Made by a program: the position numbers and the translations under genes. Of a DNA stretch of 64,000 bases, positions 7,496 to 45,145 are shown in pieces (the stretch's first letter is position 1; every line of letters starts with the position of its first letter). The notes under the pieces are model-generated. The model was not told the origin of the DNA, did not search any database, and saw only the letters and a list, made by a program, of their open reading frames with translations. Source of the stretch: Dehalococcoidia bacterium (lineage in GTDB: Bacteria > Chloroflexota > Dehalococcoidia > SHYB01); the NCBI GenBank assembly GCA_965219875.1, contig CBDCOW010000003.1, positions 1,002,458 to 1,066,457 of the forward strand, read 5' to 3'.

Positions 7496-8401
7496 TCAGG
7501 CAGATTGAAGGGTGGCGACACTGAAGACGACGGAGAAGGGCTTGCAGTAGATGACCACGCTATTGAAGACCGACACGTCCACGCCAGCAGGGATCACGTA
7601 GTTCTGGTTCCCCCGGTTGCCCTTCAGGTCTCCCAGATCGACGTACCCGCCCAACTTGACCTCGTCCGACCGGGTCGGGTCCTCGTGGGGCGACAAAATC
7701 ACGTGGAGAGCCGGGCCATTGGTCACGTCAAGGTTTTCCAGCCGGAGCAAGTGGCCGCCGCCGGGAGTGCTGAAGATGATTGCTTGACCACTCCCCCGGT
7801 GAAAGCTGTCGGCGTCTTTGAAGTTGCCCTGCTTCACCTTCCGGGCTTCGTCCTGTTGATTGACGTTCGCCATGATGACCGGCTCCATCATGCGGGCGCC
7901 CCGTTCTACCATCTCCATGTCGGCCGCGGCGCGGACCATCGTGAACCCTTCCGTCAGGGCGGCGTGGTCGTCGTCACTCATTACCGTGATAGAACTGCCG
8001 GACGCCAGCATCGCCCCGGCGTTTATGGCCGAGGCTCCGGGCATATCCTCCCTCATCACCGGGTCGTCAACCATCGCCATCCCGGCCATAGCTCCCTCTA
8101 CGTCGGCCCGTTCCATTCCCTCGGGCACCACGGCATTGAAGGCGAAGGGGAACTCTTCCTCCACGGTAACGTTGATGAATAACGGCGATCCAAGCGACCA
8201 GCCAACCCAAAGGGTAATAGCCAGCATTGGGACTGAAGCGATGCCGAAGGCCACGCGATTGCGCCAAATGACCTGATGCCAGCCGCGCCGATAGCCGAAG
8301 GCGAGGACTGCGGCGATAAACACCAAAGTGGCGGCCCCGATGAGCCAACGGTACTCGTAGAGGCTGGCGAACGTGCGTTCAACATCACCGATAGTCGACA
8401 T
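7496..8401 (-). CDS. Membrane-anchored DM13 (electron-transfer) domain protein with Met-rich linker
   Basis: N-terminal TM helices. A Met-rich segment (MAGMAMVDDPVMREDMPG...MVRAAADMEMVERGARMMEPVIM) follows. The C-terminal ~110 aa match the DM13 domain pattern (NFKDADSFHRGSGQAIIF...LRLENLDVTNGPALHVILS...KGNRGNQNYVIPAGVDVSVFNSVVIYCKPFSVVF). ATG at 8401 is preceded by GGAGGG. The track start at 8413 is a TTG. Confidence 0.7.
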   Translation of the reverse strand: MSTIGDVERTFASLYEYRWLIGAATLVFIAAVLAFGYRRGWHQVIWRNRVAFGIASVPMLAITLWVGWSLGSPLFINVTVEEEFPFAFNAVVPEGMERADVEGAMAGMAMVDDPVMREDMPGASAINAGAMLASGSSITVMSDDDHAALTEGFTMVRAAADMEMVERGARMMEPVIMANVNQQDEARKVKQGNFKDADSFHRGSGQAIIFSTPGGGHLLRLENLDVTNGPALHVILSPHEDPTRSDEVKLGGYVDLGDLKGNRGNQNYVIPAGVDVSVFNSVVIYCKPFSVVFSVATLQSA

Positions 8402-8546
8402 TGCACCCTCCAAGGATCCTCTGCTTTTCGAGCCCAGCCCAGTCCGGACCTGAGCACTAAGGTACTAGATTCTGCCCAGCTGGTGGACCCGAACTTGGTC
8501 AAGACCGGAGATAGGCGTGAGATCGCTAGGATGAATGTGGTCGACT

Positions 8547-9347
8547 CTAGCGGGCCTTCCACTCGGCGGGACGCTTTTCAGTGAACGCCAGCGGTCCTTC
8601 CTTGGCGTCCTCGGTTTGGCTGATCTGGGCGTAGATCATGTCGCCGAATTTCTGCGACTCTTCCATCGCCAGACGGCGCCAAAAGTGCATCATCTTCCTT
8701 GTCGCCTGGACCGCGAGCGGCGCGTTGGCGGCGATGGCGCCGGCGATTTCGATTGCCCGCGGCATCAGTCGGTCCGGTGCCGTGACCTCATGGACGAAGC
8801 CAATGCGGCGCGCTTCCTCCGCCGACATCGTCTCACCCGTCAGGGCGTAGTACATGGCCTCGCCGAAATGCGTCACCCTCGCAAAGTGATGAATGCCATA
8901 AATGGCAAGAATGCCACGCTTCACTTCGGGCAGGCCGAATGTCGCCTCCGTCGAGGCGATGCGGATGTCGCAGTCCATCGCCTCCTCCATACCGCCCCCG
9001 AGCGCAAGCCCATTGACCGCCGCGATGATGGGCTTGGGGCTTCGAGAGAAGATGCCCGGCCCCCGGGGCTGGCCCATGTCGGCGCGCTCCCGGCGTTCCC
9101 CGGACGAATCCTCCTCGGCGTCTTGATCGCGCTGGGCCATCTCCTTCAGGTCCGCTCCCGCGGAAAAGGCGCGGCCCGTGCCGGTCACGATGGCCACCCG
9201 CATACTGGGGTCCTCATCGAAGTCGTCCATGGCCTCCCGCCGCTCGGCGATCATCTGCCTCCCGAAGGCGTTGAGACGGTCGGGACGATTCATGGTGAAC
9301 AGCGCGTAGTGCTCGGCGTCACGCTTCTCGTAGATCCAGTACGGCAT
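8547..9347 (-). CDS. Enoyl-CoA hydratase/isomerase (crotonase) family protein
   Basis: HYALFTMNRPDRLNAF...VTGTGRAFSAGADLKE...IIAAVNGLALGGGMEEAMDCDIRIAS is the crotonase fold signature. Confidence 0.85.
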   Translation of the reverse strand: MPYWIYEKRDAEHYALFTMNRPDRLNAFGRQMIAERREAMDDFDEDPSMRVAIVTGTGRAFSAGADLKEMAQRDQDAEEDSSGERRERADMGQPRGPGIFSRSPKPIIAAVNGLALGGGMEEAMDCDIRIASTEATFGLPEVKRGILAIYGIHHFARVTHFGEAMYYALTGETMSAEEARRIGFVHEVTAPDRLMPRAIEIAGAIAANAPLAVQATRKMMHFWRRLAMEESQKFGDMIYAQISQTEDAKEGPLAFTEKRPAEWKAR

Positions 9348-9366: not shown

Positions 9367-10077
9367 CTACTCGGACCGAACGCCCGCGGCCCTTTCGCGA
9401 TAGTGGCTGTCCAATTGACCGTGGACTTGGCTTACCCGGCCCAGCTCGGTCACCAGAGAATCAAGCTGGCCGCCGGGGATGGCCATCAACATCAAATCGT
9501 CCCCGACGGTTGTGTTGATCCGCATGCCGACGCAGCCGAAAGACTGCGACGGCCTGCCCTCAGTGAGGGCTATAGGAACCGCGGCGCAGCCCGGTCTGCC
9601 ATAGACGCCGGTGGGCGCCGCAGCCCAATTCATGAGCCCGCAGCTTTCCGCCACGACCATCGCCTGCCGGGGCGTAGCCCACACTAGCGCGAGATCAGGC
9701 TCGACGGGGAACCGGCTCAGCGGCCCATAGACGATCCCCGCGGACGCTAGGCCGTTCTTCGGTACCTTCTCCACTTCCTCTTCCCGTATGTAGGACGTAC
9801 CGCACATCATCCCCACGTCCTCCATCAGTCGCCCCATCGTCTCGTCGGGCAGTGGGAAGCCCATGACCATCGCACCAAGGGGGCAGTTAAAGTGATCGTC
9901 AGCGGCGGCGTAGAACACGTCGGTCTCAGCCTCATGCCAGAAGGCGCAGGTGGAGGGGACCGCCTTGCCAATCCGGGATACCCCTTCCGGCTGCCCTTGC
10001 ACGAACGCCAGTCCGATCACAGGCTTCGTCAGCGACAATGTACGTTCAATGAATCCGGCCGTTTCGCCGTGCTGCAT
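9367..10077 (-). CDS. DUF169-like protein (conserved Cys-containing, function unknown)
   Basis: 236-aa ORF co-oriented with the hydratase and acyl-CoA dehydrogenase. It has conserved Cys/His positions (CAFWHE, HFNCPLG, CGTSY) reminiscent of DUF169. The family assignment is from memory only. Confidence 0.55.
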   Translation of the reverse strand: MQHGETAGFIERTLSLTKPVIGLAFVQGQPEGVSRIGKAVPSTCAFWHEAETDVFYAAADDHFNCPLGAMVMGFPLPDETMGRLMEDVGMMCGTSYIREEEVEKVPKNGLASAGIVYGPLSRFPVEPDLALVWATPRQAMVVAESCGLMNWAAAPTGVYGRPGCAAVPIALTEGRPSQSFGCVGMRINTTVGDDLMLMAIPGGQLDSLVTELGRVSQVHGQLDSHYRERAAGVRSE

Positions 10078-10109: not shown

Positions 10110-11282
10110 TTAGCTCCTGGGAAGCCCCAGCCCTCGTGTCGCTATGATATTCCGTTGGATCTCAGACGTCCCGCCGTAGACCGTCAAGTACAGCGACCGG
10201 CGGTAGCCGCTCTCGATCCTCCCCTCGAGCGGCGCCCGTGGTTCGCCGCTCCCCATCTGGCCACGTAGTCCGAGCAAACGCATCCCCAGCAGGAAGAGAC
10301 GCTGCTCCAACTCCGTTCCAAGCAGCTTGACCACCGAGGCCTCCTGATTGGGAATCAAGCCCTGGCTCTGCTTCCACGCCACGTTGTAGCACATGAGACG
10401 GCAGGCCTGGATTTCCGCCGCCATCTCCGCGATTCGATGCCGAATGATCGCGTCGTCCCACGTCGCCCCACTCCCGTTTCCCATCGCGCGGTAGTAAGCC
10501 GTCAACTCCTCCAAGAAGCGCCTGGCCCGGGCCGGAACGCCGACGCCGGAGCGCTCGAAGTCAAGGGAAGCGGCGCCGACGTACCACCCCCGGTTCTTCT
10601 CCCCTACGAGGTTCTGCTTGGGGACGCGGACCTCGTCGAACGTGACGAGGCTCCGGGAGCCGTCGTACATCATGGGGAAGGTGCTGACGGAGATGCCTGG
10701 GCTGTCCATTTCCACGAGGAGGAAGCTGATGCCGCGGTGCTTCGGCGCATTGGGGTCGGTCCGGACCAGCATGAACATCCAATCGGCACCGTTGTGAGCC
10801 CCATTCCAGAGCTTGGCACCGGTGACCACGAAGTCGTCGCCATCCTCCACGGCGACGGTTTGCAGGGAGGCAAGGTCGGAGCCGGCGTCCGCCTCCGAGT
10901 AGCCCTGGGCCCAATCGATGTCCGCGTCGGCGATCTTGTTCAGAAAGAAAGCCTTCTGCTCGGGCGTTCCATGGATCATCAGGACGGGGGCCAGGATATT
11001 GACGCCCATCCCCGTCGCGGGGACGCGGTGATAGGCGGTCTCTTCGTTGAACACCAACTGGCGCATGTGCGGCGCGGCGCGGCCTCCATATTCCCGGGGC
11101 CACGCCATCGTCAGCCACCCTTGCTGCGCCAGTTTCTTCCGGAACTGGTGGATGAGGATGGCGTGCTCGGGCTCCTCGGCGTCTACGTCGAGCGCTCGCC
11201 AGTCCCAGGGAAGCTCGCGGTCGATGAACGCCGCAAGCTCCGCTCTGAACGCTTCGTCTTCGTGTGTGAAGAGAAACTCCAT
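10110..11282 (-). CDS. Acyl-CoA dehydrogenase
   Basis: Start ATG 11282..11280 (MEFLFTHEDEAFRAELAAFI...), the typical ACAD N-terminus. C-terminal YGGTSEIQRNIIA is the ACAD signature. The longer track ORF adds 21 aa of unlikely N-terminus. Confidence 0.9.
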   Translation of the reverse strand: MEFLFTHEDEAFRAELAAFIDRELPWDWRALDVDAEEPEHAILIHQFRKKLAQQGWLTMAWPREYGGRAAPHMRQLVFNEETAYHRVPATGMGVNILAPVLMIHGTPEQKAFFLNKIADADIDWAQGYSEADAGSDLASLQTVAVEDGDDFVVTGAKLWNGAHNGADWMFMLVRTDPNAPKHRGISFLLVEMDSPGISVSTFPMMYDGSRSLVTFDEVRVPKQNLVGEKNRGWYVGAASLDFERSGVGVPARARRFLEELTAYYRAMGNGSGATWDDAIIRHRIAEMAAEIQACRLMCYNVAWKQSQGLIPNQEASVVKLLGTELEQRLFLLGMRLLGLRGQMGSGEPRAPLEGRIESGYRRSLYLTVYGGTSEIQRNIIATRGLGLPRS

Positions 11283-11415
11283 GGTCCCGGTTCGGCGGAG
11301 AGATGGTTTCAGCAGGGGGCTGGCAGCGATTCTACACCGCGGCATGCCGCCACGTTGTTACCGCGCGGGCTGCGGGCTATACTCGGCTCATCAGGCAGCA
11401 GAGCGGCGAGGGAAC

Positions 11416-12522
11416 ATGAGCCTACGGGGCGCGGCCGCGATCGTCGGCATCGGCGAGCTTCCAACCAGAAGGGACTACCCCGGAAGGTCGGCGTATTCTC
11501 TTTGCATTGAGGCCGCGAAACTGGCCATCGACGATGCGGGACTGCGCCACCAAGATATCGACGGCCTCATCACCTCCGCCGAGGACTTCAGCCCGATTAC
11601 GCTGGCCGAACGTTTGGGGCTTCGTCCCACCTTCCTGGAAGGAAGCCACCTCATGGGGGCCAGCGGCGCCCAGTCGATCGGACTCGCCGCCATGGCCGTC
11701 AACGCGGGTCTCGCCAATTACGTGCTCTGCGCCTTCGGGGGCGGCAGGGATCCCGCCTTTGGGCGGGGCGGACACGGGTCCTCCACGAGTATCAGGACGG
11801 AATTCGAGAGTCCCTACGGGCCGGTCGTCGCGGCCAACGGCGTCTACGCGCTGCTCAAACAGCGGCACATGCACCAGTTCGGCTCGACGGACGAGCAGTT
11901 CGCCAAGGTCGCCGCCGACCAGCGGTTCAACGCCCTGACCAACGAGAACGCAGTGTTCCACGGCAAGCCCATCACGACCGGCGACGTGCTGAACTCCCCA
12001 ATGGTGTGCGACCCCTTGCATCTGTTGGAATGCGTTATGCCCTGCGCGGGAGCTTTCGCCTGTGTGGTGACTTCCGCGGAACGGGCTAGGGCGTTGCCCC
12101 ATCCGCCGGCGTTCGTCCTTGGGGTCGGGTCGCACTCGACACACGAGCTCATTTGGCAGAGTCCCGACATCACGACGACTCCCGTCGAGGTATCGGCCCG
12201 GAAGGCCTTCGAAATGGCCCGCTACGGCCCGGGGGATGTCCAGTTCGCCGAACTCTATGACTGATACACGGTCCTCGCGGCCGTGAGCCTCGAAGATGCC
12301 GGGTTCTGCGAGAAGGGTGAGGCCGGGGCCTTTTACGAGTCGACGGACACGACCTACAAGGGAAGCTTCCCGGTCAACACGGACGGCGGCCAGCTCTCGG
12401 GCGGCCAGCTCACCGGCATGGGCGGGGGGTTCCGGCAGGTCGTCGAAGGTGCGCGCCAGATCATGGGCCGTGGCGGCGAGCGCCAAGTGCCGAAAGCGGA
12501 CCTCTGCACGATAAACGGCTGA
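11416..12522 (+). CDS. SCP2-type (nsLTP/lipid-transfer-protein-like) thiolase, interrupted by an in-frame TGA at 12262..12264 (candidate selenocysteine codon, or nonsense/pseudogene)
   Basis: MSLRGAAAIVGIGELPTRRDYPGRSAYSLCIEAAKLAIDDAGL... ATG at 11416 after a GAGGG. The frame reads ...QFAELYD-TGA-YTVLAAVSLEDAGFCEKGEAGAFYES...PVNTDGGQLSGGQLTGMGGGFRQVVEGARQIMGRGGERQV. The TGA sits where SCP2-thiolases carry the Cys of the (H/Y)DCF loop. The 79 downstream codons stay in frame and family-typical. Confidence 0.75.
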
Positions 12523-12586
12523 GGCGGCGACGCGAGCGTGATGTTCACGCTCATGCTCGGATCGGAAGCAGCCGAGTAGGCCGTCG

Positions 12587-13006
12587 ATGAGCGAAGCCGG
12601 TTACTCCAAGCCCCTCCCGATACCCGCGGACCCCGAGCTGACCAGGCCCTTCTGGGAGGCGGCCAAGCGCCACGAGCTACTCATCCCGCGCTGCGGCGAG
12701 TGCGGTCGCTTCTTCTTCTACCCCAGGCACGCGTGTCCGAATTGCCTGTCGTCGGACTGGGAGTGGGCGCCGGTCAGCGGTCGAGGCCGCGTCTACAGCT
12801 TCACCTTGGTCCGCCGGCCCGCCGACCCATCTTTCGCGGGCGACGTGCCCTACGCCTACGCCGTCGTCGAGCTTGACGAGGGGCCTCGAATGGTAACCGG
12901 CATCGTCGACTGCCCGCTCGAGGCCATCGAGATCGACATGCCGGTCCAAGTCCGGTTCGACGACGTGACCCCCGAGTGGACGCTGGTGAAGTTCGCCCCC
13001 GCTTGA
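12587..13006 (+). CDS. DUF35 family Zn-ribbon/OB-fold protein (thiolase-associated)
   Basis: CGECGRFFFYPRHACPNCLS zinc ribbon followed by an OB fold. DUF35 proteins characteristically accompany SCP2-type thiolases. Confidence 0.8.
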   Translation: MSEAGYSKPLPIPADPELTRPFWEAAKRHELLIPRCGECGRFFFYPRHACPNCLSSDWEWAPVSGRGRVYSFTLVRRPADPSFAGDVPYAYAVVELDEGPRMVTGIVDCPLEAIEIDMPVQVRFDDVTPEWTLVKFAPA

Positions 13007-19357: not shown

Positions 19358-20278
19358 GTGATACGGATCCCAAGAGAACGGTCGCCCAGCGGGTATGCGG
19401 CGGCCATCGCAACGTGGGCGCTCGACCGCGCGGTCCGCACGTGGCGGCTGGTGCGCCTGCATCCCATCGGCTTTATCGGCCTCTTTATGGTCGCACTCAT
19501 CGTGGTGCTGGCGATCGGCGCCGACATCTTCGCCTTCAGCGACCCCAATGAAGGGGACTTCCGCGTGCGCCTGCAGGGCCCCGGCCTGAACCACTGGTTT
19601 GGCACCGACGATCTGGGGCGCGACCAGTGGAGCAGGATGGTGCACGGAGCACGGCTCTCGGTGTTCGTGGGCTTCGCATCGGTGGGTTTCGGGACGCTCG
19701 TCGGACTCGCCTTGGGCGTCTCCGCGGGGTACATGGGTGGCCGGCTGGACAGCGTGAGCCAGCGGATCGTCGAGATCATGCTCTCCCTGCCCGATCTGCT
19801 CATGGCCTTGGTGCTGGTGGCGACGCTGGGAAGCGGCCCCGACAAGGTGGTCCTGGCCCTGGCCATCATCTTCATCCCCAGTACGGTCCGCGTCGTGCGG
19901 GGCACCGTCCTCTCGGCCAAGGAGAACATGTACGTGGAGGCCGCGCGGGCCCTGGGAGCCTCGCAGTTCCGCATCATGTTCCGCCACATCCTGCCCAACG
20001 TGACCGGGACATACCTCGTTCTCGCCAGCAGCTTCCTTGGGGTAGCAGTGCTCATCGAGGCAACCCTGAGCTTCCTGGGGCTCGGCGTTCCGCCGCCGCA
20101 TGCGTCCTGGGGGCGCATGCTCTCCGGCTACGCCAGCGACTTCGCCGTGACCGCTCCTTGGCTGGTAATCTTCCCAGGTCTTGCCATCTCGTGGCTGGTG
20201 ATCGGATTCAACCTCTTCGGCGACGCGCTGCGCGACATCTGGGACCCACGCCTGGGACGTGGCAGGCGGGAAGTCTGA
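19358..20278 (+). CDS. ABC transporter permease, DppC-like
   Basis: NHWFGTDDLGRDQWSRMVHGARLS is the typical DppC N-terminal periplasmic loop. EAA loop YVEAARALGASQFRIMFRHILPN. Confidence 0.9.
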   Translation: MIRIPRERSPSGYAAAIATWALDRAVRTWRLVRLHPIGFIGLFMVALIVVLAIGADIFAFSDPNEGDFRVRLQGPGLNHWFGTDDLGRDQWSRMVHGARLSVFVGFASVGFGTLVGLALGVSAGYMGGRLDSVSQRIVEIMLSLPDLLMALVLVATLGSGPDKVVLALAIIFIPSTVRVVRGTVLSAKENMYVEAARALGASQFRIMFRHILPNVTGTYLVLASSFLGVAVLIEATLSFLGLGVPPPHASWGRMLSGYASDFAVTAPWLVIFPGLAISWLVIGFNLFGDALRDIWDPRLGRGRREV

Positions 20279-20284
20279 CGGCCG

Positions 20285-20761
20285 ATGAGCGACACGACAC
20301 TCTCCGCGGTAGAGGCAAGGCTTGAACGCCACGGCGTGCGTCTGCCGCCGGCGCCCGAACCCGCCGCCAACTACGTCGAAGTCGTGGTCACGGGGAATCT
20401 GGCGTTCGTATCCGGCCATCTCGGCAGGAAAGCCGACGGTGCCAGGGTACCGGGGAGGCTGGGAGCCGACCTAGGCGTGGAGCAGGGTTACGACGCGGCG
20501 CGTCACGCGGCGTTGGCGGCGCTGGCGAGCCTGAAGGAGAGCTTGGGAAACCTCGATAGAGTCGTCCGCATCGTTCGTCTCCTCTGCGTTGTGAACTCGA
20601 CCCCCGAGTTCGCCGAGCAACACAAGGTGGCGAACGGCGCCTCCGATCTCTTCGTACAAGCCTTCGGCGAGTCCGGGCGGCATGCCCGGGCGGCGATCGG
20701 CGTCGCCGCCCTGCCGTTCGGGGCCTGCTGCGAAATCGAGCTCGTAGCCGAGGTCGCCTGA
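20285..20761 (+). CDS. RidA/YjgF/TdcF family protein
   Basis: LAFVSGHLG...PEFAEQHKVANGASDLF...ARAAIGVAALPFGACCEIELVAEV matches the RidA fold pattern. Confidence 0.8.
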   Translation: MSDTTLSAVEARLERHGVRLPPAPEPAANYVEVVVTGNLAFVSGHLGRKADGARVPGRLGADLGVEQGYDAARHAALAALASLKESLGNLDRVVRIVRLLCVVNSTPEFAEQHKVANGASDLFVQAFGESGRHARAAIGVAALPFGACCEIELVAEVA

Positions 20762-20804: not shown

Positions 20805-21347
20805 ATGACGACCGATGCGAGGATCTACGGTACGTACAACTTCCAGTACCCGAGAATGACGGATGAGGAGGTCTGGGCCTTCCTGGAGACGCCGGAGGCG
20901 GAGGACGTCTACCTGGCCACCTGCGGGAACGACCACATACCGCATTGCACGACCATCTGGATCTACATCTATCAGGGTAAAATCTACTTCAACTGCTTCG
21001 CGAAGCCATTGAAGAAGAAGGTCCGCAACATCATGGAGAACCCTAACGTGTGCCTCACCGCGGCGGTGACGCCCAACGGCGACGGCAATCAGGTGTACGG
21101 GGCCGCCGTGACTGGCGTGGCGAAGATAGTCGACGACCCGGAACTCATCGCGGCGGTCCAGGCACACGTCAGGCGACGGGCCCAGGCCGCGCAGCAACAG
21201 GGGCTTCGCCCAAAGCCGACTTCTCCATGGGCCGACATCATGCGGGGGCAGGAGCACATGTGGGTCGAAATAACCCCGACAAAGATCCTGTCCTGGGACA
21301 AGCGAAAGCGGCCCCAGGTGCTGGAAGAAGCCAACCCGCGTGCATGA
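20805..21347 (+). CDS. Pyridoxamine 5'-phosphate oxidase-like (PPOX-class) FMN/F420-binding split-barrel protein
   Basis: WAFLETPEAEDVYLATCGNDHIPHCTTIWIYIYQGKIYFNCFAKPLKKKVRNIMENPNV. Paralogue of 23756..24277. Its TGA overlaps the ATG of the downstream CoA-transferase (ATGA). Confidence 0.7.
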   Translation: MTTDARIYGTYNFQYPRMTDEEVWAFLETPEAEDVYLATCGNDHIPHCTTIWIYIYQGKIYFNCFAKPLKKKVRNIMENPNVCLTAAVTPNGDGNQVYGAAVTGVAKIVDDPELIAAVQAHVRRRAQAAQQQGLRPKPTSPWADIMRGQEHMWVEITPTKILSWDKRKRPQVLEEANPRA

Positions 21348-23737
21348 CGATTCCGACTTCGCCTGAACGCCGGCCAGGGTCGGCCCTGGGGGATCTGCGG
21401 GTGCTGGAGCTTGGGGGCCCGATGGGCCAACACTGCGGCAAGCTCCTTGCCGACATGGGCGCGGACGTCGTCAAGATCGAACCCCCAAACGGCGACCCCG
21501 CCAGACGGACCGGCCCATTCGCCCGGGACGTTGAGGACCCCGAGGGAAGTCTCTACTTCCTGTACTTCAACACCAACAAGCGGAGCCTCGTTCTCGACCT
21601 CGCCTCCGCCGCCGACCGGGCGCGGTTGCGCCGTCTTGCCGGCACGGCCGACGTGGTGCTGGACAGCTTCCCTCCGGGGTTTCTGGACGAACAAGGCGTG
21701 GGCTATCGGAGCCTCTCGCGCGTCAACCCGGGACTCGTGATGACATCGATCACGCCGTTCGGCCTCACCGGCCCCTACCGGAGCTTCACTGGGTCCGACC
21801 TCGTGGCCCAGGCGATGGGCGGGCTCATGTACGTCCAAGGCGACGACGCCAAGCCGCCTTGTGCCGCCCCTTTCGACTTGGCCTACCAGCTTGCCTCCCG
21901 TCACGCCGCCTTCGCGACCCTCGCGGCCCTCCACGGGCGCCGGAGCACGGGCCGGGGGCGTCAGGTCGACGTTTCCTTGCAAGAAGTCGTGGCCCAACTC
22001 CTGTTCACCGTGGCGAAATACGCCTTCGACGGCCAGATCGTGCGGAGAGCCGGACGGCTCATCACCAATGCCCCACCGCCGAGCGGCTACTACTGTTGTA
22101 AGGACGGGCGGTGGGTCAGCGTTTCGGTGATCTTCCTCCGGCACTGGCAGACGCTGGCGCAGTGGATGGGGGACGAGGTGCTGAAAGAGTCCCTCTGGGA
22201 AGACCGCGCCTTCCGCTACGCCAACCAGGATCTCGTGATCGACGCCATGGAGGAATTCGTGGGCGGGTTCGCATTGGACGAATTCGTCGCCGCCGCGCAG
22301 GAACACGGGCTGTCCGCCGTCCCGATCAACACATTACGGGGCGTCGTCGAAAGCCCCAAGAACAGGGCCCGGGCCTGGTTCGCCGACAGCGTGCATCCCC
22401 GCCTCGGGCCGCACCGATTCCCCGGAGCGCCCTACAGGTTGAGCGAGACGCCGTGGCGGTTGCACCGTCCGGCGCCGCTCCTCGGACAGCACAGCCAAGA
22501 GATTCTGGCGGAGTTGCCGACACACCCCGTAGGCAAGCCGGAAAAGGCTCAGGGCACCAACCGGGCCCCGCTACATGACGTGCGCGTGCTGGACTTCACG
22601 AGAATGTGGGCGGGGCCCCTCGCCACCCGCTACCTCGCCGACCTTGGCGCGGAGGTCATCAAGATCGAGGTGGAGCACGCCCCCGACGAGGGGCGCACCG
22701 GGCAACCGCTGACGGCCACGGTGGGCGAGCTCAACCGCGGCAAGAGAAGCGTGACCGTGGACTTCAAGACCGCCGAAGGCATCGAGGTGCTGAAGGAGCT
22801 GGTCAGGCTTAGCGACGTGGTGATCGACAACTACCCGCCAGGGGTCCTCGAACGTCAAGCTCTCGGCTACCAAGCCCTCAAGCGGGTGAAGCCGGATATC
22901 ATCGTGGTCGGCATGCCAGGCTTCGGGTCGGATGGGCCGTATGCGAAGTACGTGGCGTTTGGCCAGGAGATGATGGCCGACTCCGGTCTCGCCCACCTTT
23001 GGGGCTATCCTGAGTCGCCCATAGAGTGCAGGGCCAAGGTGTACTACACCGACTTCGACGCCGCGGCCGCCGCAGCATGCGCCGTGATGACCGCCCTCGA
23101 ATGCCGGGACCGAACCGGCCTCGGACAATACGTCGAAGTCGACGGGTCGGAAGCGGCGACGGCCAACACCGGCGTGGGACTGCTCCACTTCCTCGTCAAC
23201 GGCGCGCAGCTCGAGCCCATGGGCAACCGCAACTTCGCCGCGGCTCCGCACGGCTGCTACCCCTGCCAAGGCGATGATCAGTGGTGCGTCATCGCCTGCT
23301 TCATCCAGCGGCACTGGGAGGCCCTCTGCGACGTGGCCGGCCACCCCTCCTGGGCCACGGACGCCCGCTTCGCGTCCCTGGAGGCCCGGCGGCTTCACCA
23401 AGACGCCTTGGACGAGCGCATCGGCGATTGGACGAAGGGCTACACGCCCTACCAGGTCATGCGAATGCTACAAAGAGCCGGCGTCCCCTCAGGCGTGGTG
23501 CAGTCCGGGGAGCAGCTCTACCACGACCACCACCTCCGTGCCCGGGGCTTCATCGCCGAAATCGAGCACGCCCAGCCCTGGGGCCGCATGGAGCATCCCC
23601 GCTCCCCGGTTCTTCTCGGCGCAATGGCGCCGCTCAGGGGCATGCCGGCAGTCGGCGAGCACAACCGCCACGTGCTGGCCGACCTGCTGGGACTCGGCGC
23701 GGACGAATTGACCACCGCCGCCAAGAGCGCATCGTAG
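21344..23737 (+). CDS. Tandem-fused family III CoA-transferase (two CaiB/BaiF-type domains in one 797-aa chain)
   Basis: Domain 1 has LRVLELGGPMGQHCGKLLADMGADVVKIEPPNGDP and domain 2 has VRVLDFTRMWAGPLATRYLADLGAEVIKIEVEHAPDEGR. Both carry the family-III N-terminal Rossmann signature, and each is followed by the Asp-containing middle region. ATG 21344 is the chosen start. The track ORF has a spurious 98-aa N-extension. Confidence 0.85.
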   Translation: MTIPTSPERRPGSALGDLRVLELGGPMGQHCGKLLADMGADVVKIEPPNGDPARRTGPFARDVEDPEGSLYFLYFNTNKRSLVLDLASAADRARLRRLAGTADVVLDSFPPGFLDEQGVGYRSLSRVNPGLVMTSITPFGLTGPYRSFTGSDLVAQAMGGLMYVQGDDAKPPCAAPFDLAYQLASRHAAFATLAALHGRRSTGRGRQVDVSLQEVVAQLLFTVAKYAFDGQIVRRAGRLITNAPPPSGYYCCKDGRWVSVSVIFLRHWQTLAQWMGDEVLKESLWEDRAFRYANQDLVIDAMEEFVGGFALDEFVAAAQEHGLSAVPINTLRGVVESPKNRARAWFADSVHPRLGPHRFPGAPYRLSETPWRLHRPAPLLGQHSQEILAELPTHPVGKPEKAQGTNRAPLHDVRVLDFTRMWAGPLATRYLADLGAEVIKIEVEHAPDEGRTGQPLTATVGELNRGKRSVTVDFKTAEGIEVLKELVRLSDVVIDNYPPGVLERQALGYQALKRVKPDIIVVGMPGFGSDGPYAKYVAFGQEMMADSGLAHLWGYPESPIECRAKVYYTDFDAAAAAACAVMTALECRDRTGLGQYVEVDGSEAATANTGVGLLHFLVNGAQLEPMGNRNFAAAPHGCYPCQGDDQWCVIACFIQRHWEALCDVAGHPSWATDARFASLEARRLHQDALDERIGDWTKGYTPYQVMRMLQRAGVPSGVVQSGEQLYHDHHLRARGFIAEIEHAQPWGRMEHPRSPVLLGAMAPLRGMPAVGEHNRHVLADLLGLGADELTTAAKSAS

Positions 23738-23755: not shown

Positions 23756-24277
23756 CTACTCCTTGTCCAGGAGCGTGACCCACTTTCGGCGGTCCCACGA
23801 GAAGACCTTCTCCGGCACTATCTCGAAGAACGCGTGCTCTGCCTTCACGTGCTCAGTCCTGAACTTGGCGCGGGTCTCCGCATGCCGTTCTTCGTCCCCC
23901 GACCTCACGTACTTCGCGAGGAAGTGGCGCTGGAACTCGTCGATCTCCTCCTGGCTTTCGATCACCCGCGCTTTGCCCAGGATGGTGACGCCGAACTGGT
24001 CGAAGCCGTCCATCTGATTGTCGGCAGTGCAGGACACCCACGGGAAGTTCAGAATGTCGCGCGTCTTCTTTCGCATCGGCTTCTTGTACGCCTTGAAGTA
24101 GATCTTCTGGTCCCGGCTGAAGAACCAGATGATGCTGTTGCTGGGCATCCCGTCCTTGCCGACCGTGGCCATGGCCATGGTGCGCACGGCGGGCGATTCG
24201 AGGAAGGCCCAGACATCCACGTCGTCCATCGGAAGGTATGGCTGCTTCTCGAATTGCTCCACCCATGATTCTCCCAT
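23756..24277 (-). CDS. PPOX-class FMN/F420-binding split-barrel protein (paralogue)
   Basis: VWAFLESPAVRTMAMATVGKDGMPSNSIIWFFSRDQKIYFKAYKKPMRKKTRDILNFPWV aligns with the 20805 paralogue. Confidence 0.7.
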   Translation of the reverse strand: MGESWVEQFEKQPYLPMDDVDVWAFLESPAVRTMAMATVGKDGMPSNSIIWFFSRDQKIYFKAYKKPMRKKTRDILNFPWVSCTADNQMDGFDQFGVTILGKARVIESQEEIDEFQRHFLAKYVRSGDEERHAETRAKFRTEHVKAEHAFFEIVPEKVFSWDRRKWVTLLDKE

Positions 24278-24355: not shown

Positions 24356-24745
24356 TCAGCCGATCACGGCGATGGCTTCGATCTCCAGGTTCAGTCCGGG
24401 CTCAGCGAGCGCGGCTACTTCCACCAGAGAGTTGGCCGGGTGCTGGCCGTCGAAGTACTGATCGTAGAGCGCGAGCTGATCGTCGGGAAGGGGCCACCAG
24501 TCGCCGATCTTGGTGACAAACGTGGTGATCTTCACGATGTCCGTTGGCTTCCCGCCCTCGGCCTCCACGATCCTGATCAGCTTGTCCAGCACTACTCGGA
24601 GTTGCTCGATTGCCGGCCCGCCCTCCGCTGGCGTCTTCATCGCGGTGCAGCCCGAGATGAAGAGCTGGTTACCGGCCCGTACCGCTCTGGCGTAGTTGGG
24701 GCCGGAGGGTGAGATGTCGGGATAGTCACGGCGCAGCTTGTCCAT
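24356..24745 (-). CDS. RidA family protein
   Basis: LFISGCTAM...PTDIVKITTFVTKIGDW...PANSLVEVAALAEPGLNLEIEAIAV. Confidence 0.8.
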   Translation of the reverse strand: MDKLRRDYPDISPSGPNYARAVRAGNQLFISGCTAMKTPAEGGPAIEQLRVVLDKLIRIVEAEGGKPTDIVKITTFVTKIGDWWPLPDDQLALYDQYFDGQHPANSLVEVAALAEPGLNLEIEAIAVIG

Positions 24746-29892: not shown

Positions 29893-29968
29893 TGGTGGAC
29901 CCGAGGGGAGTCGAACCCCTGACCTCCTGAATGCAAATCAGGCGCTCTCCCAACTGAGCTACGGGCCC
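29893..29968 (-). tRNA. tRNA-Ala (anticodon UGC), CCA encoded
   Basis: Manual fold of the reverse complement: acceptor GGGCCCG/CGGGUCC with the G3:U70 Ala identity pair, D-arm GCUC-AGUUGGGA-GAGC, anticodon stem CCUGA with loop UUUGCAU, T-arm AGGGG-UUCGACU-CCCCU, 3' ACCA. 76 nt. Confidence 0.9.
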
Positions 29969-30012: not shown

Positions 30013-31200
30013 CTAGTTGACGCGTTGAAAGATACCGGCGCAGCCTTGGCCGCCGCCGACGCACATGGTGACCAGGGCGTATTCGCCGTCGATGCGGTCG
30101 AGTTCGTCCATGGCCTTAAGCGTCATGATGGCCCCCGTTGCGCCGACGGGGTGGCCGAGGGCGATGCCGCTGCCGTTGGGGTTCGTCTTCTCGATGTCGA
30201 GGCCGAGCTCTCGGATGCAATACGCGGCCTGGGCGGCGAAGGCCTCGTTCAACTCGATGACGTCGATGTCATCCAGCGTCATGCCGGTGCGCTTCAGGAC
30301 CTTGCGCACCGCGGGGACGGGGCCGATGCCCATGACCGAGGGATCGACGCCGGCGACGGCGCGCGCGATCCAGCGGAGGCGCGGCTTAAGGCCCAGCTCG
30401 TCGGCCTTCCGCTGCGACATCACCACCACCGCCGCCGCGCCGTCGTTGATGCCCGAAGCGTTGCCCGCCGTCACCGAGCCGCCCTCCTTGAAGGCCGGCC
30501 GCAGCGCGGCGAGCGCTTCGAGCGTGGTGCCGGGGCGGGGGTGCTCGTCGGTCTCGACGATCTTGGGGTCGGCCTTGCGTTGGGGCACGGCGACGGAGAC
30601 GATCGAGGGTTTGAAGCGTCCCTCCGCGATGGCGCGTCCGGCGCGCTGCTGGCTCATCACGGCCAGCTCGTCCTGCTCCTGGCGGGAGACCTCGAAGCGG
30701 CTCGCGACGTTCTCCGCCGTCACCCCCATATGGTAGTAGTTCACGGGGCAGTTCAGGCCGGCGATCAGGCCGTCCTTCACCGAAACGTCCCCCATGCGGA
30801 AGCCGTCCCACCGGGCCTGCTTGGGCATCAGATAGGGGGTCTGGCTCATGTTCTCGGCGCCGCCGGCGACGGCGATCTCCGCCTCGCCGGTCAAGATCAA
30901 CTGGGCCGCCATGTTGATCGACTCCAAGCCGGAGGAGCACCAGCGGTTGATGTTGATCGCCGGGACCTCTTCGGGGATCCCCGCGCGCAGCGCCGCCACG
31001 CGCGAAGTGTAGCCGTCGTCGTTCACCTGGAGCACGTTGCCGAGGACCACCTCGTCGACATCCTTGGGGTCGACGTTGGCGCGGCTGAGCGCCTCCTTCA
31101 TGGCGACGGCGCCGAGGTCGACCGCCGAGTAGTCTTTGAACGATCCGCCGAATCTGCCGATCGGGGTACGCGCGCCGCTGACGATAACCGGGTTGTCCAT
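30013..31200 (-). CDS. Acetyl-CoA C-acyltransferase (classical thiolase)
   Basis: VIVSGARTPIGRFGGS, NRWCSSGLESI (active Cys), NEAFAAQ, GHPVGATG, CVGGGQG are all the classical thiolase catalytic loops. Confidence 0.9.
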   Translation of the reverse strand: MDNPVIVSGARTPIGRFGGSFKDYSAVDLGAVAMKEALSRANVDPKDVDEVVLGNVLQVNDDGYTSRVAALRAGIPEEVPAININRWCSSGLESINMAAQLILTGEAEIAVAGGAENMSQTPYLMPKQARWDGFRMGDVSVKDGLIAGLNCPVNYYHMGVTAENVASRFEVSRQEQDELAVMSQQRAGRAIAEGRFKPSIVSVAVPQRKADPKIVETDEHPRPGTTLEALAALRPAFKEGGSVTAGNASGINDGAAAVVVMSQRKADELGLKPRLRWIARAVAGVDPSVMGIGPVPAVRKVLKRTGMTLDDIDVIELNEAFAAQAAYCIRELGLDIEKTNPNGSGIALGHPVGATGAIMTLKAMDELDRIDGEYALVTMCVGGGQGCAGIFQRVN

Positions 31201-31339
31201 GCCGTCTCCTGTGTGGCCTTCGATCCGTCGCCACTTCTGTAGGGGTCATTCTCTGGTAGGCGCATGGGGCTGTCAAGAAAGACCACGCCGCCGGTGGGGC
31301 GAATGGGGCCGGCGTCACCCCCTGTGCTACCATGAGCCC

Positions 31340-32752
31340 ATGGGACGCTCTCGAAGCGCCGAGCCCACCAAGGCCGGGAACGGCGCCCGCCCCGGCAACG
31401 GGTACCGGCGGCTGCCCAGCGTGGACGCCGTGGCGGGCGACCCCCGTCTCGAACAGGCCGTGTCCCGCTACTCGCGGCCCGCTGTCGTCGAAGCGGTACG
31501 CGGTCAGATCGAGCGGGCGCGGGCGCGCATCGCCGCCGGCGAGGCGCCGCCGTCGGAAGACGAGGTCATCGCCGGGGCCGAGGCCGCCCTCTCCCGCGAC
31601 CTCGAACCCTCGCTGCTCTCCGTCATCAACGCCACCGGCGTCGTGCTCCACACCAACCTAGGACGCGCGCCGTTGAGCGCAGAGGCGGCCGAGGCTGCCC
31701 GCCGCGCCGCCGCGGGCTACGGCAACCTCGAAATGGACCTCTCGGTGGGCGAGCGCGGGTCGCGCCACACCCACCTCGACGAGCTACTGCGCCGGATCAC
31801 CGGCGCCGAGGCCGGATTCGCGGTCAATAACAACGCCGCCGCCGTCATGCTCACGGTGCGCGCCGTCGCCCGCGGCAAGGAGGTCGTCGTCTCGCGCGGC
31901 GAGGCCGTCGAGGTCGGCGGCGGCTTCCGCATCCCCGACGTGCTCGCCCAGTCCGACGCCGCGCTGGTCGAGGTCGGGACTACGAACCGCACCTACGTGG
32001 GGGACTACGAGGACGCGGTGACGGAAGAGACCGCCGCCTTCCTCAAGGTTCATCGCAGCAACTTCAGGGTCACCGGCTTCACGCACGAGGCCGGCCTTGC
32101 CGAGCTTGCCGAAGCGGCGGCGCGCCGCGGCGTCCCCTTGCTCTACGACCTCGGCAGCGGCTGCCTGCTCGATAGCGCGGAATACGGCCTCGCCCACGAG
32201 CCGACGCCCGCCGAGGCGGTGCGCGAGGGGGCGGACGTCGTCATGTTCTCCGGCGACAAGCTGCTCGGCGGACCGCAGGCCGGCATCGTGGTCGGCAAGA
32301 GCCGCTACATCGACATTCTCAAGAAGCATCCACTCGTCCGCGCCATGCGGATCGACAAGGCGACGATGGCCGCCCTCCAGATGACGTTGCTGCACTATCT
32401 ACGCGGCGAGGCGGCGGAGAAGCTGCCCATCTGGCGAATGATCGCCGCGCTGCCCCCGGCCCTCGAACGGCGGGCCAAGCGTCTCGCCAAGGCCGCCGGG
32501 CCGGGCGCGGCGGTGCGCGACGGCGCGTCGGCCATCGGCGGCGGCACGCTCCCTGGGGAGGCGCTGCCCACGCGGGTAGTGGCGATTCCACCCGGCGGCA
32601 CCGGCGTCGAGGCCATGGCCGCGGCACTGCGCACAGGCTCACCGCCCATCGTGGCACGCATCGAGCGCGACGCCCTGATCGTCGATCCGCGCACCGTCCT
32701 CCCCGAGCAGGACCGGACCGTGGCCGAGGCCCTCGCCCGGCTCCGCGGCTAG
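31340..32752 (+). CDS. selA: L-seryl-tRNA(Sec) selenium transferase (selenocysteine synthase)
   Basis: VINATGVVLHTNLGRAPLS, GYGNLEMDLSVGERGSRH, VNNNAAAVMLT, EVVVSRGEAVEVGGGFRIPDV, LVEVGTTNRT, KVHRSNF and SGDKLLGGPQAGIVVG with the PLP-Lys match SelA motif for motif. Confidence 0.9.
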   Translation: MGRSRSAEPTKAGNGARPGNGYRRLPSVDAVAGDPRLEQAVSRYSRPAVVEAVRGQIERARARIAAGEAPPSEDEVIAGAEAALSRDLEPSLLSVINATGVVLHTNLGRAPLSAEAAEAARRAAAGYGNLEMDLSVGERGSRHTHLDELLRRITGAEAGFAVNNNAAAVMLTVRAVARGKEVVVSRGEAVEVGGGFRIPDVLAQSDAALVEVGTTNRTYVGDYEDAVTEETAAFLKVHRSNFRVTGFTHEAGLAELAEAAARRGVPLLYDLGSGCLLDSAEYGLAHEPTPAEAVREGADVVMFSGDKLLGGPQAGIVVGKSRYIDILKKHPLVRAMRIDKATMAALQMTLLHYLRGEAAEKLPIWRMIAALPPALERRAKRLAKAAGPGAAVRDGASAIGGGTLPGEALPTRVVAIPPGGTGVEAMAAALRTGSPPIVARIERDALIVDPRTVLPEQDRTVAEALARLRG

Positions 32753-40642: not shown

Positions 40643-42658
40643 ATGGCGGCGCTGCGCTCCACAGACACCTACACCATCGACGTCGACATCGGCGGGACGT
40701 TCACGGACGGCGTTCTGAGCGATGGTGCGGGCGTCCGGTGGGCCAAGGTCGACACCACCCCCCACGACCTCACGGAGTGCTTCCTGCGCTGCGTCGAGGA
40801 GCTTGCCGCGCTCGCCGGCCTGGACACCGCCGCGCTCCTTGCCCGGTCGTCCGTCATCCGGCTGTCGAGCACCGTCGCGACGAACATGCTGCTCCAGCGG
40901 AACGGGCCCAAGCTGGGCATCATGGTGACCGAGGGCGAGGAGGCGGCGCTCACCGGGGGCGCGGCAGCCGAGCTTTTCGCCGGCATCGTCGATCCCGGCA
41001 TGGTCGCCGGCCTCCCCGAGGCCATGTCTCCGGCGGGCGAGGTCATGCGCGCGCTGGACGAAGCCAACGTCCGGCGGGCGATGGAGCGGTTGCTCGACGA
41101 CGGGGCCAGGGGCATCGTCGTCAGCTTCGACGGCGCTATCGCCAACCCTGCCCACGAGCTCCTGGCGCGCCGGGTCGTGAACGGTGAATACCCACGGCAC
41201 TATCTCGGCTCGGTGCATACCTGGCTGGGGGCCGAGCTCAGCAGTGGCGACGACCCGCTGCGCCGGAACACCGCCATCCTCAACGGCTACCTTCACCGCG
41301 GAGTAGCGACCTCGCTCTACAAGTCGGACGAGTTGCTGCGCCAACGCGGCTTCAAACGACCCCTGCTCGTGGCGCACTCGCGGAGCGGGACGGCGCGCGT
41401 CGCCAAAACCACCGCACTCAACACCTACAACTCCGGCCCCGTGGCCGGTCTCGTGGGCTGCGCCAGGCTCGCGAAGGACCTGTACGGCATCGAAGACCTC
41501 GTCTCCATCGACGTGGGCGGCACCAGCGTCGACATCGGCATCGTCGCCGGCGGCGAGGTGCCCTTCAGCGCCGAGCCCGCGGTCCACGGCATCGCCGTCG
41601 GGACCCCGATGATCGACGTCGAGCCGGTCGGCGGCGGCGGCGGCGGCATCGTGAAGGCCGACGGCGCTTCCGGCGACGTCAGCGTGGGGCCAGAGAGCGC
41701 CGGCGCCCTTCCGGGCCCCGCCTGCTACGGTCTCGGCGGCAACGACCCCACCCTCACCGACGCCGACGTGATCCTGGGCTACATCAACCCCGAGTTCTTC
41801 CTCGGTGGCAAGCGCGCCCTCGACGCGGAGCGCGCCCGCAACGTCTATCAGCGGCGCGTCGCCCGTAGGCTGAACGTCCCCCTCGAAGAGGCCGCCGACC
41901 GCGCCGCGCGTCAAGCCGAGCGCGACGTGGCGGAGCGTCTCGCCGCCGCCCTCGACGCCCGCGGCCTCGACCCCGCCGGCGTCACCATGTTCGCCTTCGG
42001 CGGCGGTGGCGGCCTACGCTGCTGCGGCTACGCCGAGGCGGTGGGCATCCGCAAGATCATCGTCTTCCCCTTCGCCGGCGTGGCCAGCGCCATGGGCGCC
42101 TCTTTCATGGACGTGGCCCACTTCTACGATGCCCCCGTGAACGCCGACCTCGACGGGCCCGACGCCGTGACGCGCTACAACCAGACCATTGCCGGCCTGC
42201 AAGCGCGGGCGGCGCGCGACATGCTCGGCGAGGGCTTTGCCGAGAACGAGATAGCGTTCGAGGCCGAGGCGGTGATCGAGGCGGGCGCCGAGCGGCGAAC
42301 CGTCCCGGCTCCCGTCGAAGTCCAATCGCCGGACGAGCTCCGCGACGGAGCGCCGTCACCCGGTCTGAAACTGCGCTCGGTGACGCTCCGCGCGGCCTGC
42401 AGTACGCCGCGCGTCGCCATCGAGCGCCGCAAGCTCAGTGGGCGCAGTCCCAAGGCGGCGTTGAAAGGCGAGCGTGAAGTCTATCGGAACGGCGCATTCA
42501 CCCCGTCGAAGGTCTACGCCGCCGACCGGCTGAAGCCGGGGAACGCCGTCGAGGGTCCCGCGATCGTCGAGGCCGCCGACAGCACCGTCGTCGCGCCCGC
42601 CGGCTGGACCTACACCGTCGACGCCTTCGGCAACGGTGTGCTGGAGCGGGCATCGTGA
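40643..42658 (+). CDS. Hydantoinase A / oxoprolinase (HyuA) family ATPase subunit, copy 1 (acetone/acetophenone carboxylase beta-like)
   Basis: N-terminal TIDVDIGGTFTDGVL and the second ATPase motif LVSIDVGGTSVDIGIV match the Hydantoinase_A/ASKHA fold. Confidence 0.9.
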   Translation: MAALRSTDTYTIDVDIGGTFTDGVLSDGAGVRWAKVDTTPHDLTECFLRCVEELAALAGLDTAALLARSSVIRLSSTVATNMLLQRNGPKLGIMVTEGEEAALTGGAAAELFAGIVDPGMVAGLPEAMSPAGEVMRALDEANVRRAMERLLDDGARGIVVSFDGAIANPAHELLARRVVNGEYPRHYLGSVHTWLGAELSSGDDPLRRNTAILNGYLHRGVATSLYKSDELLRQRGFKRPLLVAHSRSGTARVAKTTALNTYNSGPVAGLVGCARLAKDLYGIEDLVSIDVGGTSVDIGIVAGGEVPFSAEPAVHGIAVGTPMIDVEPVGGGGGGIVKADGASGDVSVGPESAGALPGPACYGLGGNDPTLTDADVILGYINPEFFLGGKRALDAERARNVYQRRVARRLNVPLEEAADRAARQAERDVAERLAAALDARGLDPAGVTMFAFGGGGGLRCCGYAEAVGIRKIIVFPFAGVASAMGASFMDVAHFYDAPVNADLDGPDAVTRYNQTIAGLQARAARDMLGEGFAENEIAFEAEAVIEAGAERRTVPAPVEVQSPDELRDGAPSPGLKLRSVTLRAACSTPRVAIERRKLSGRSPKAALKGEREVYRNGAFTPSKVYAADRLKPGNAVEGPAIVEAADSTVVAPAGWTYTVDAFGNGVLERAS

Positions 42659-45140: not shown

Positions 45141-45145
45141 CAGCC

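Follow-up and report, generated by a model that had tools for sequence, protein, structure and literature searches.

A gene for a thiolase-fold protein in a Dehalococcoidia bacterium (Chloroflexota) carries two in-frame UGA codons, and we put at roughly 0.8 the probability that both are decoded as selenocysteine (Sec) through the ordinary bacterial route of SelB and a selenocysteine insertion sequence (SECIS), giving a full-length product of 387 residues. The gene lies in a stretch of 64,000 nucleotides (nt), hereafter the window, from contig CBDCOW010000003.1 of assembly GCA_965219875.1 (positions 1,002,458 to 1,066,457 of the forward strand); coordinates below are those of the window. The gene and its two UGA codons, referred to as site 1 and site 2, are:

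11416 to 12579, plus strand: gene for a thiolase-fold (Sal/SCP2-thiolase-like) protein of 387 residues with two in-frame UGA codons; it ends at TAG 12577-12579.
12262 to 12264, plus strand: UGA no. 1, candidate Sec283, in the motif Y281-D282-U283-Y284; the column of the catalytic Cys304 of the aldolase CtSal (see below) and of the HDCF-loop Cys of SCP2 thiolases.
12520 to 12522, plus strand: UGA no. 2, candidate Sec369, in the motif I-N-G-U-G-G; two residues N-terminal of the Gly aligned to the oxyanion-hole Gly391 of CtSal.

Translation starts at ATG 11416, downstream of a GAGGGA ribosome-binding site, and the protein begins MSLRG. At site 1 the frame reads QFAELYD, then TGA at 12262-12264, then YTVLAAVSLEDAGFCEKGEAG in unchanged frame, and at site 2 it reads ADLCTING, then TGA at 12520-12522, then the 18 codons GGDASVMFTLMLGSEAAE up to the TAG at 12577-12579. 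A first-pass annotation, made from the sequence alone, had reported the TGA at 12262-12264 within a thiolase-like open reading frame (ORF), and the reading frame bears this out. The same annotation had counted 79 codons beyond that TGA and ended the gene at 12522; there are actually 85, the figure of 79 having been counted from an internal GTG, and the TGA that was taken for the end is itself in frame and followed by 18 conserved codons, so that the gene ends at 12579. The Pfam domain Thiolase_C_1 (PF22691) covers residues 238-382 of the read-through protein and bridges both TGA codons, as does the last core beta-strand. Homologues with a sense codon at site 2 run on alike, in the form VNG-[N/C/S]-GG.AS.M..LVLGS..L.

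Both TGA codons are conserved among relatives. We searched 5.8 billion proteins and examined the 120 best clusters, reading the DNA of five of them, and in addition scanned loci in one genome per species, which yielded 80 loci, each aligned to the window protein. Gene calls stop at ...VNG in 104 of these 120 clusters and at ...YD in 4; in about 10, site 2 is a sense codon. The four that stop at site 1 end exactly at ...FAE[LF]YD, one being 97% identical to the window protein and three 70-71% identical. In the DNA of the five clusters the frame runs on through GG.(A/G)S.M..L.LG... to a real stop in every case. An independent assembly whose protein is 97% identical (L010) has TGA at both codons, and reading of the DNA found the same at two loci of 70-71% identity (L001 and L004), with two others (L006 and L009) having a Cys codon at site 1 and still TGA at site 2. 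More broadly, both TGA codons persist in relatives of 53-72% identity, amid many synonymous changes. Among the copies from Chloroflexota, Dehalococcoidia and SAR202 with at least 53% identity, site 2 is TGA (about 35 copies) except in three that have AAC, while at site 1, 24 distinct copies have TGA, 14 have a Cys codon (TGC or TGT) and a single one has GCA; every distinct copy with TGA at site 1 (24/24) also has TGA at site 2. Homologues below 47% identity, from Binatia, Syntrophomonadaceae, Proteobacteria and Actinobacteria, never have TGA; their residue at site 1 is C, S or A, and that at site 2 mostly N but also T, H or S. One two-Sec copy (L012, CAWIVX010000002.1, 67% identity) comes from a metagenome-assembled genome labelled 'uncultured Actinomycetota', which reflects either a binning or taxonomy error or a family that reaches beyond Chloroflexota.

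These copies speak to the two alternatives that the first-pass annotation had set beside selenocysteine, a very recent nonsense mutation and a sequencing error, and likewise to a pseudogene or an assembly error at 12262-12264. TGA is one base away from TGC and TGT, and gene callers split or shorten the gene at these codons, as would be expected of such damage. However, the same two TGA codons occur in at least 24 distinct copies from independent assemblies, across 53-97% identity, and the synonymous divergence around them excludes a shared systematic artefact. The cluster of the 282-residue fragment (P0001) has 42 member sequences. Combined with purifying selection past each TGA and with hairpins that show compensatory changes, both described below, this leaves damage or error of any of these kinds with next to no probability.

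The ratio of nonsynonymous to synonymous substitution rates (dN/dS), measured against five relatives, is about 0.04-0.20 between the two TGA codons and about 0.14-0.45 in the 18-codon tail, and by this measure the translation downstream of each TGA is under purifying selection. It is very improbable, then, that the TGA codons are real stops which yield a 282-residue fragment (relatives with Cys at site 1 would make 368 residues and lack the last strand), with the downstream conservation belonging to separate pieces or to an RNA function. Databases do annotate the genes as ending at the TGA codons, and GTG 12283 could restart a 79-residue ORF. Nevertheless, Thiolase_C_1 and the last core beta-strand span both codons, every relative stays in frame across both and requires neither restart codons nor ribosome-binding sites, homologues with sense codons are continuous, and the 18-codon tail is conserved at the amino-acid level.

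Each UGA is followed by a SECIS-like hairpin:

12270 to 12298, plus strand: SECIS-like hairpin 1; upper stem UCGCGGC / GCCUCGA (12275-12281 with 12287-12293), loop CGUGA (12282-12286), and a short lower stem flanking these.
12534 to 12552, plus strand: SECIS-like hairpin 2; 7-base-pair stem GAGCGUG / CACGCUC, loop AUGUU.

Hairpin 1 starts 10 nt past its UGA and hairpin 2 exactly 11 nt past its own, and both consist of 19 nt with a 7-pair stem and a 5-nt apical loop containing GU. In their spacing of 10-11 nt, their size and their apical GU, both hairpins resemble the minimal SECIS of Escherichia coli fdhF. In the family form of hairpin 1, UCG(N)GGC-CGUGA-GCCUCGA, 83% of the cells of the alignment are paired, compared with 35-48% when the partners are slid, and one clear compensation, G-C to C-G, is seen in the paralogues of L035-L037. 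For hairpin 2, among the 14 sequences that share its register, 98.8% of cells are paired compared with 17-62% when slid, two pairs are compensated from G-C to C-G, and RNAalifold recovers the helix at -12.25 kcal/mol. Homologues with a Cys codon at site 1 or an Asn codon at site 2 are without these hairpins. Within the clade, 84% of hairpin 1 pairs are formed in TGA genes versus 58% in Cys-codon genes (p=8e-7), and the sequence after a TGA folds more stably than its counterpart in non-TGA homologues, with p=1e-5 for site 1 and p=4e-9 for site 2. Other subclades have a hairpin 2 of similar size with its register shifted by 2-6 nt, for example GCGAGC-GAAAUGU-GCUCGC or GGUG-U-CCA-GUA-UGG-C-CACC, and each register carries its own post-Sec peptide, such as S-E-M-C-S-L or V-S-S-M-A-T-L. 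At L016-L026, some 10-30 nt past the second TGA, S-V-M-C-T-L has become S-E-M-C-S-L and the hairpin lies 2 nt further upstream (GCGAGC...GCUCGC); judged from the aligned sequences, these post-Sec369 substitutions look like changes driven by keeping the RNA pairing.

The window also encodes the enzyme that makes selenocysteine on its tRNA:

31136 to 32752, plus strand: selA, L-seryl-tRNA(Sec) selenium transferase; TIGR00474 at 541.7 bits against a cut-off of 267.9.

The match to this hidden Markov model covers residues 90-534 of the ORF, and because it begins only at residue 90 the real start is probably near 31340-31400. SelA had been claimed for this window before, and so had the use of TGA as an ordinary stop; both claims stand. 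Of the 43 genes predicted in the window, 11 end in TGA, the DUF35 gene directly downstream of the Sec gene among them. A scan of third-position guanine-cytosine (GC) content, which is noisy, gave no other credible in-frame-TGA gene in the window. Two same-frame pairs of ORFs split by TGA were examined and proved to be neighbouring genes of the usual kind, each with its natural terminus. In one pair a RidA-like gene follows an ABC permease (19358-20278 / 20285-20761, plus strand); in the other a RidA-like gene comes first, and its successor is PNPOx-like by eye (24356-24745 / 23756-24277, minus strand). Neither a sequencing error nor a recent nonsense mutation nor a recoded genome is compatible with the conservation of the TGA codons, the dN/dS values and the normal TGA stops taken together.

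Several observations weigh against decoding as selenocysteine. The first group concerns the RNA. Single-sequence folds of the 66-69 nt after each TGA were, at site 1, no better than those of shuffled sequence, and we therefore used the comparative tests; only the hairpin 2 of the window has a significant single-sequence z-score (-2.29). A hairpin after 12264, for which the first-pass annotation had proposed a folding check, is thus upheld by comparative pairing and not by the folding of the single sequence. Hairpin 1 is modest, with a 1x1 mismatch in most sequences, and its core helix is predicted by RNAalifold only weakly, at -3.16 kcal/mol. The statistics given above that set TGA genes against non-TGA homologues ignore both phylogeny and GC content. 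An Rfam search at gathering and at lenient thresholds matched no SECIS model to either hairpin, and one weak match, to GRIK4_3p_UTR (E=0.74), is noise. The second group concerns the decoding machinery and site 2 itself. Within the 64-kb window there is no selB or selD in Pfam and NCBIfam scans and no selC (tRNA-Sec) with ARAGORN or Rfam, ARAGORN finding tRNA-Ala alone. The non-Sec residue at site 2 is usually Asn, or else Thr, Ser or His, which is atypical of Sec sites, and Cys is rare there, with one case (P0060).

The missing selB, selC and selD and the predominance of Asn rather than Cys at site 2 would also suit a reading of the UGA codons as Trp, Cys, Gly or Arg, by a near-cognate or suppressor tRNA or by a lineage-specific change of code. 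We regard this as very unlikely. TGA ends 11 of 43 window genes, the next gene downstream among them; the GC content of the window is 66%, unlike that of known UGA-reassigning lineages; selA has no known role beyond making Sec-tRNA(Sec); the hairpins stand at the 10-11 nt spacing typical of a SelB-dependent SECIS; and at site 1 Cys is the sole frequent alternative to TGA. Of the three explanations offered in the first-pass annotation, selenocysteine is the one strongly favoured by the conserved TGA, the hairpin, selA and the exchange of Sec for Cys among homologues, where site 1 has TGA in 24 distinct copies and TGC or TGT in 14.

We then considered what kind of enzyme carries these residues. 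Among solved structures, 9MYR (CtSal) is nearest in sequence (E=8e-80), ahead of 4U4E, a Sphaerobacter "putative thiolase", and then of 6OK1 (Ltp2). An AlphaFold model of the homologue P0078 (predicted local distance difference test, pLDDT, 86) likewise has 9MYR as its best fold match, with a template modelling (TM) score of 0.86. CtSal is the bile-acid side-chain retro-aldolase of Comamonas testosteroni, solved with the DUF35 domain of Shy (Rolfe et al., JBC 2025, PMC12329534). Its catalytic dyad is Tyr302 and Cys304 of a Y-D-C-Y motif, the variants C304A, C304S and C304H being inactive; the thiolase nucleophile position is Gly89, Gln347 and Gln352 may stabilize the Cys304 thiolate, Gln161 and Gly391 form the oxyanion hole, and a thiolate-initiated proton relay has been proposed (PMC12329534). 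The window residues aligned to these elements are Y281-D282-U283-Y284, G81, Q326, Q331 and G371. Because Y-D-U-Y aligns to Y-D-C-Y, site 1 corresponds to the experimentally essential catalytic Cys of Sal; relatives of the window protein have YDCY itself. Gln326, Gln331 and Gly81 are invariant or nearly so in the family.

The expectation that the first TGA falls on the conserved Cys of the (H/Y)DC(F/Y) loop agrees with the alignment, in which the alternatives within the clade are TGC or TGT and, once, GCA. Alignment by hhalign with the classical thiolase of the window places U283 in the HDCF-loop Cys column and agrees with the earlier statement that this loop of SCP2-type thiolases replaces NEAF; correspondences are found for CxS, NEAF and GHP, and the alignment stops before the C-terminal loop. 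U369 lies in the C-terminal active-site loop that matches the CxG region and aligns to Thr389 of CtSal, and hand alignments place it at both registers, thiolase Cys378 or Gly380.

The earlier label of "SCP2-type thiolase" holds for the fold and fails for the strict enzyme class. The nucleophile position is Gly81, within G-A-S-G, and it is Gly in 90 of 90 homologous loci, and the His of the GHP loop (oxyanion hole I) is replaced by Gln331; therefore a strict thiolase (EC 2.3.1.9 or 2.3.1.16, SCP2-type included), which has a nucleophile Cys in CxS and a GHP His, is impossible. SCP2-type thiolases (of Leishmania and Trypanosoma, and zebrafish SCPx) and TbSLP share the fold and have the acid/base Cys of HDCF or YDCF in the column of U283, but the SCP2 thiolases proper retain the CxS nucleophile Cys where the window protein has Gly81. 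We know of no SCP2-type thiolase that contains Sec. A steroid aldolase of the Ltp2 type was also rejected. Ltp2-ChsH2(DUF35), which cleaves the steroid C3 side chain in Thermomonospora curvata (6OK1), likewise has a thiolase fold without a nucleophile Cys, a catalytic Tyr294 in YDxF that aligns to Y281, and a DUF35 partner with a C4 zinc ribbon, but it has the His of YDHF and a second Tyr344, in place of which the window protein has Sec and Gln331.

The resemblance to CtSal is closer, extending to the Gly at the nucleophile position, the Y-D-C-Y motif, the two Gln, the oxyanion-hole Gly, dependence on DUF35 and action after a dehydrogenase and a hydratase in a pathway. The two nevertheless differ in that the catalytic Cys has become Sec and Thr389 a second Sec, identity is just ~37-45%, and the host is a member of the Chloroflexota with no steroid-degradation cluster. 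Moreover, the DUF35 partner of CtSal is the C-terminal domain, of Cys3His1 (C3H1) type, of a hydratase, whereas that in the window is free-standing with a canonical C4 zinc ribbon. With a DUF35 lacking the Shy-type Cys3His1 zinc finger and no steroid-catabolism genes in the window context, the protein is not a Sal orthologue. On the alignments, it is better described as a Sal-like thiolase-fold aldolase with two putative selenocysteines than as a Sec-thiolase.

The genes around the Sec gene are consistent with this assignment:

12587 to 13006, plus strand: DUF35 partner with a C4 zinc ribbon (zf-ChsH2) and an OB fold (OB_ChsH2_C); starts 8 nt past the stop of the Sec gene.
10110 to 11345, minus strand: acyl-CoA dehydrogenase, divergent from the Sec gene.
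9367 to 10077, minus strand: DUF169 protein, between the hydratase and the dehydrogenase.
8547 to 9347, minus strand: enoyl-CoA hydratase (crotonase family), divergent from the Sec gene.

The zinc ribbon of the DUF35 protein has the pattern C-x2-C-x10-C-x2-C (CGEC...CPNC). A DUF35 gene follows the Sec gene in all four of the relative neighbourhoods inspected, and by analogy with CtSal and Ltp2 the DUF35 protein is expected to be a scaffold subunit in complex with the Sec protein. In relatives the pair sits among CoA-transferases, hydratases, luciferase-like monooxygenases, Rieske oxygenases and amidohydrolases. Neither the window nor the four neighbourhoods have a 3-hydroxyacyl-coenzyme A (CoA) dehydrogenase gene adjacent to the Sec gene, and for this reason an order of dehydrogenase, hydratase and retro-aldolase fits better than beta-oxidative thiolysis.

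By analogy with CtSal, the enzyme most likely cleaves a 3-hydroxyacyl-CoA by a Sal-like retro-aldol reaction. This substrate would come from the acyl-CoA dehydrogenase and enoyl-CoA hydratase encoded nearby, Tyr281 would act as the base that deprotonates the beta-hydroxyl, and the C-C bond would then break. Sec283, in the place of CtSal Cys304, would be a chalcogen acid/base that protonates the acyl-CoA enolate, and Sec369 would provide a second reactive group in the neighbouring C-terminal loop N-G-U-G-G. A selenol, being already ionized at neutral pH, would suit a thiolate-initiated proton relay of the CtSal type. Against the scheme, a selenol with a pKa of ~5 is a poor general acid, and the simple picture of Sec in the role of Cys304 may be wrong.

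The two sites are coupled in evolution. A neighbour-joining tree has Cys/Asn or Cys/Sec (site 1/site 2) in the outgroups and on the basal branches, and Sec/Sec clades are interleaved with Cys/Sec members (L006, L016, L024, L028-L032 and L042), which implies at least 5 switches at site 1. No sequence compared has Sec at site 1 alone. Conversely, where site 2 is Sec, site 1 is Cys or Sec in 103 of the 104 database clusters with a readable site 1 and at every scanned locus, from which we infer that residues 283 and 369 work together; on the sequences compared they appear to act as a pair. Site 2 has reverted to Asn in two cases, and site 1 is then non-Sec (Ala/Asn in L037 and Cys/Asn in L033). 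The distribution suggests an order of events from a Cys/Asn ancestor to Cys/Sec and on to Sec/Sec, with repeated reversals. Tandem paralogues of the two-Sec gene are present in several Dehalococcoidia: L034 (3865/5239), L035 (2086/3844), L036 (2083/3844) and L037 (3545/5305). In L037 one tandem copy has Ala at site 1 and Asn at site 2, and so has lost both Sec, and its neighbour keeps both.

Such coupling raises the question of whether both residues are Sec with a chemistry other than the retro-aldol scheme above. Sec369 could be a relocated nucleophile that forms a selenoester acyl-enzyme, with residue 283 as acid/base (a 'seleno-thiolase'), or residues 283 and 369 could form a Se-S or Se-Se redox or regulatory switch. 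Thiolases classically require two Cys, and a selenolate is an excellent nucleophile. Residue 369 lies in the loop bearing the oxyanion-hole Gly, Sec in place of Asn or Thr at site 2 amounts to a reactive group gained and not to an upgraded Cys, and the constant company of Cys or Sec at site 1, together with the loss of Sec from both sites in L037 and L033, fits a joint function. Nonetheless, the aldolase-type residues Tyr281, Gln326 and Gln331 are retained, and the thiolytic route needs an adjacent 3-hydroxyacyl-CoA dehydrogenase, found neither in the window nor in the four neighbourhoods; we consider such alternative chemistry, the chief rival on the side of function, rather unlikely. A broader form of the idea we put forward tentatively, namely that the protein is the first selenoenzyme of the thiolase superfamily and that Sec369 and residue 283 are a working chalcogen pair, whether as a relocated nucleophile with a selenoester or as a Se-Se or Se-S cycle.

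Other genes of the window complete the setting. Just beyond the enoyl-CoA hydratase is a protein with a DM13 'electron transfer' domain (7496-8413, minus strand). The classical thiolase mentioned above is of the BktB type (30013-31200, minus strand) and lies beside tRNA-Ala (29893-29968), ~140 nt upstream of selA on the opposite strand; it scores 541 bits with NCBIfam NF006552, just below the cut-off of 565, and passes TIGR01930. It keeps the nucleophile Cys, NEAF and GHP, and is thus an in-genome contrast to the Sec protein. An 895-residue ORF (21050-23737, plus strand) contains two fused family III CoA-transferase (CoA_transf_3) modules. Hydantoinase/oxoprolinase A and B subunits are encoded at 40643-42658 and 44417-47209 (plus strand), ~1.7 kb apart, the B ORF having 930 residues of which ~270 at the N terminus are unmatched; hydantoinase B genes also occur upstream of the Sec gene in two relatives (L008 and L009).

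The family does not appear in existing accounts of selenoproteins. A 2026 review of 119 prokaryotic selenoprotein families and subfamilies has no thiolase, aldolase or SCP2-like protein, the BSepDB, GOS and Olavius symbiont papers mention no thiolase-fold selenoprotein, and a search of the open-access full-text literature for thiolases in connection with selenocysteine or selenoproteins gave no relevant hit. The Sec protein passes the cut-off of no NCBIfam model (best, 300 bits against 421), and public annotation calls the shortened products "thiolase family protein" or "acetyl-CoA acetyltransferase". As far as the open-access literature goes, and as read from the genomes, this is an undescribed family of predicted selenoproteins, Sec insertion itself being a known process. 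It shares with known Sec-for-Cys proteins (SelD, peroxiredoxin, thioredoxin, GrdA/GrdB) an in-frame UGA, a hairpin ~11 nt downstream, Cys homologues and selA. Known selenoproteins, however, are mostly redox proteins with UxxC or CxxU motifs, and few families have two Sec, whereas here the Secs are 86 residues apart in two active-site loops of a predicted C-C-cleaving enzyme for acyl-CoA esters, and one of them stands in for Asn or Thr and not for Cys. The thiolase fold, the non-redox enzyme class, the two distant Secs and the replacement of Asn or Thr by one of them are what make the family unusual.

A large two-Sec family would join the prokaryotic selenoproteome outside the thioredoxin-fold and redox set, and would mean that a systematic annotation error shortens more than 100 database clusters at Sec codons. 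The hairpins in the coding sequence appear to shape the protein sequence. Within one clade, nature provides Sec/Cys pairs at the first site and Sec/Asn variants at the second, which offer a means to probe what selenium contributes to a C-C lyase site. For the organisms, selenium availability would be linked to acyl-CoA catabolism in the Dehalococcoidia and SAR202 of soil, groundwater and ocean. If the two residues do form a working chalcogen pair, selenium would be directly required for the C-C cleavage of acyl-CoA esters, and the protein would be a very abundant selenoenzyme in Dehalococcoidia and SAR202, organisms thought to degrade recalcitrant organic matter.

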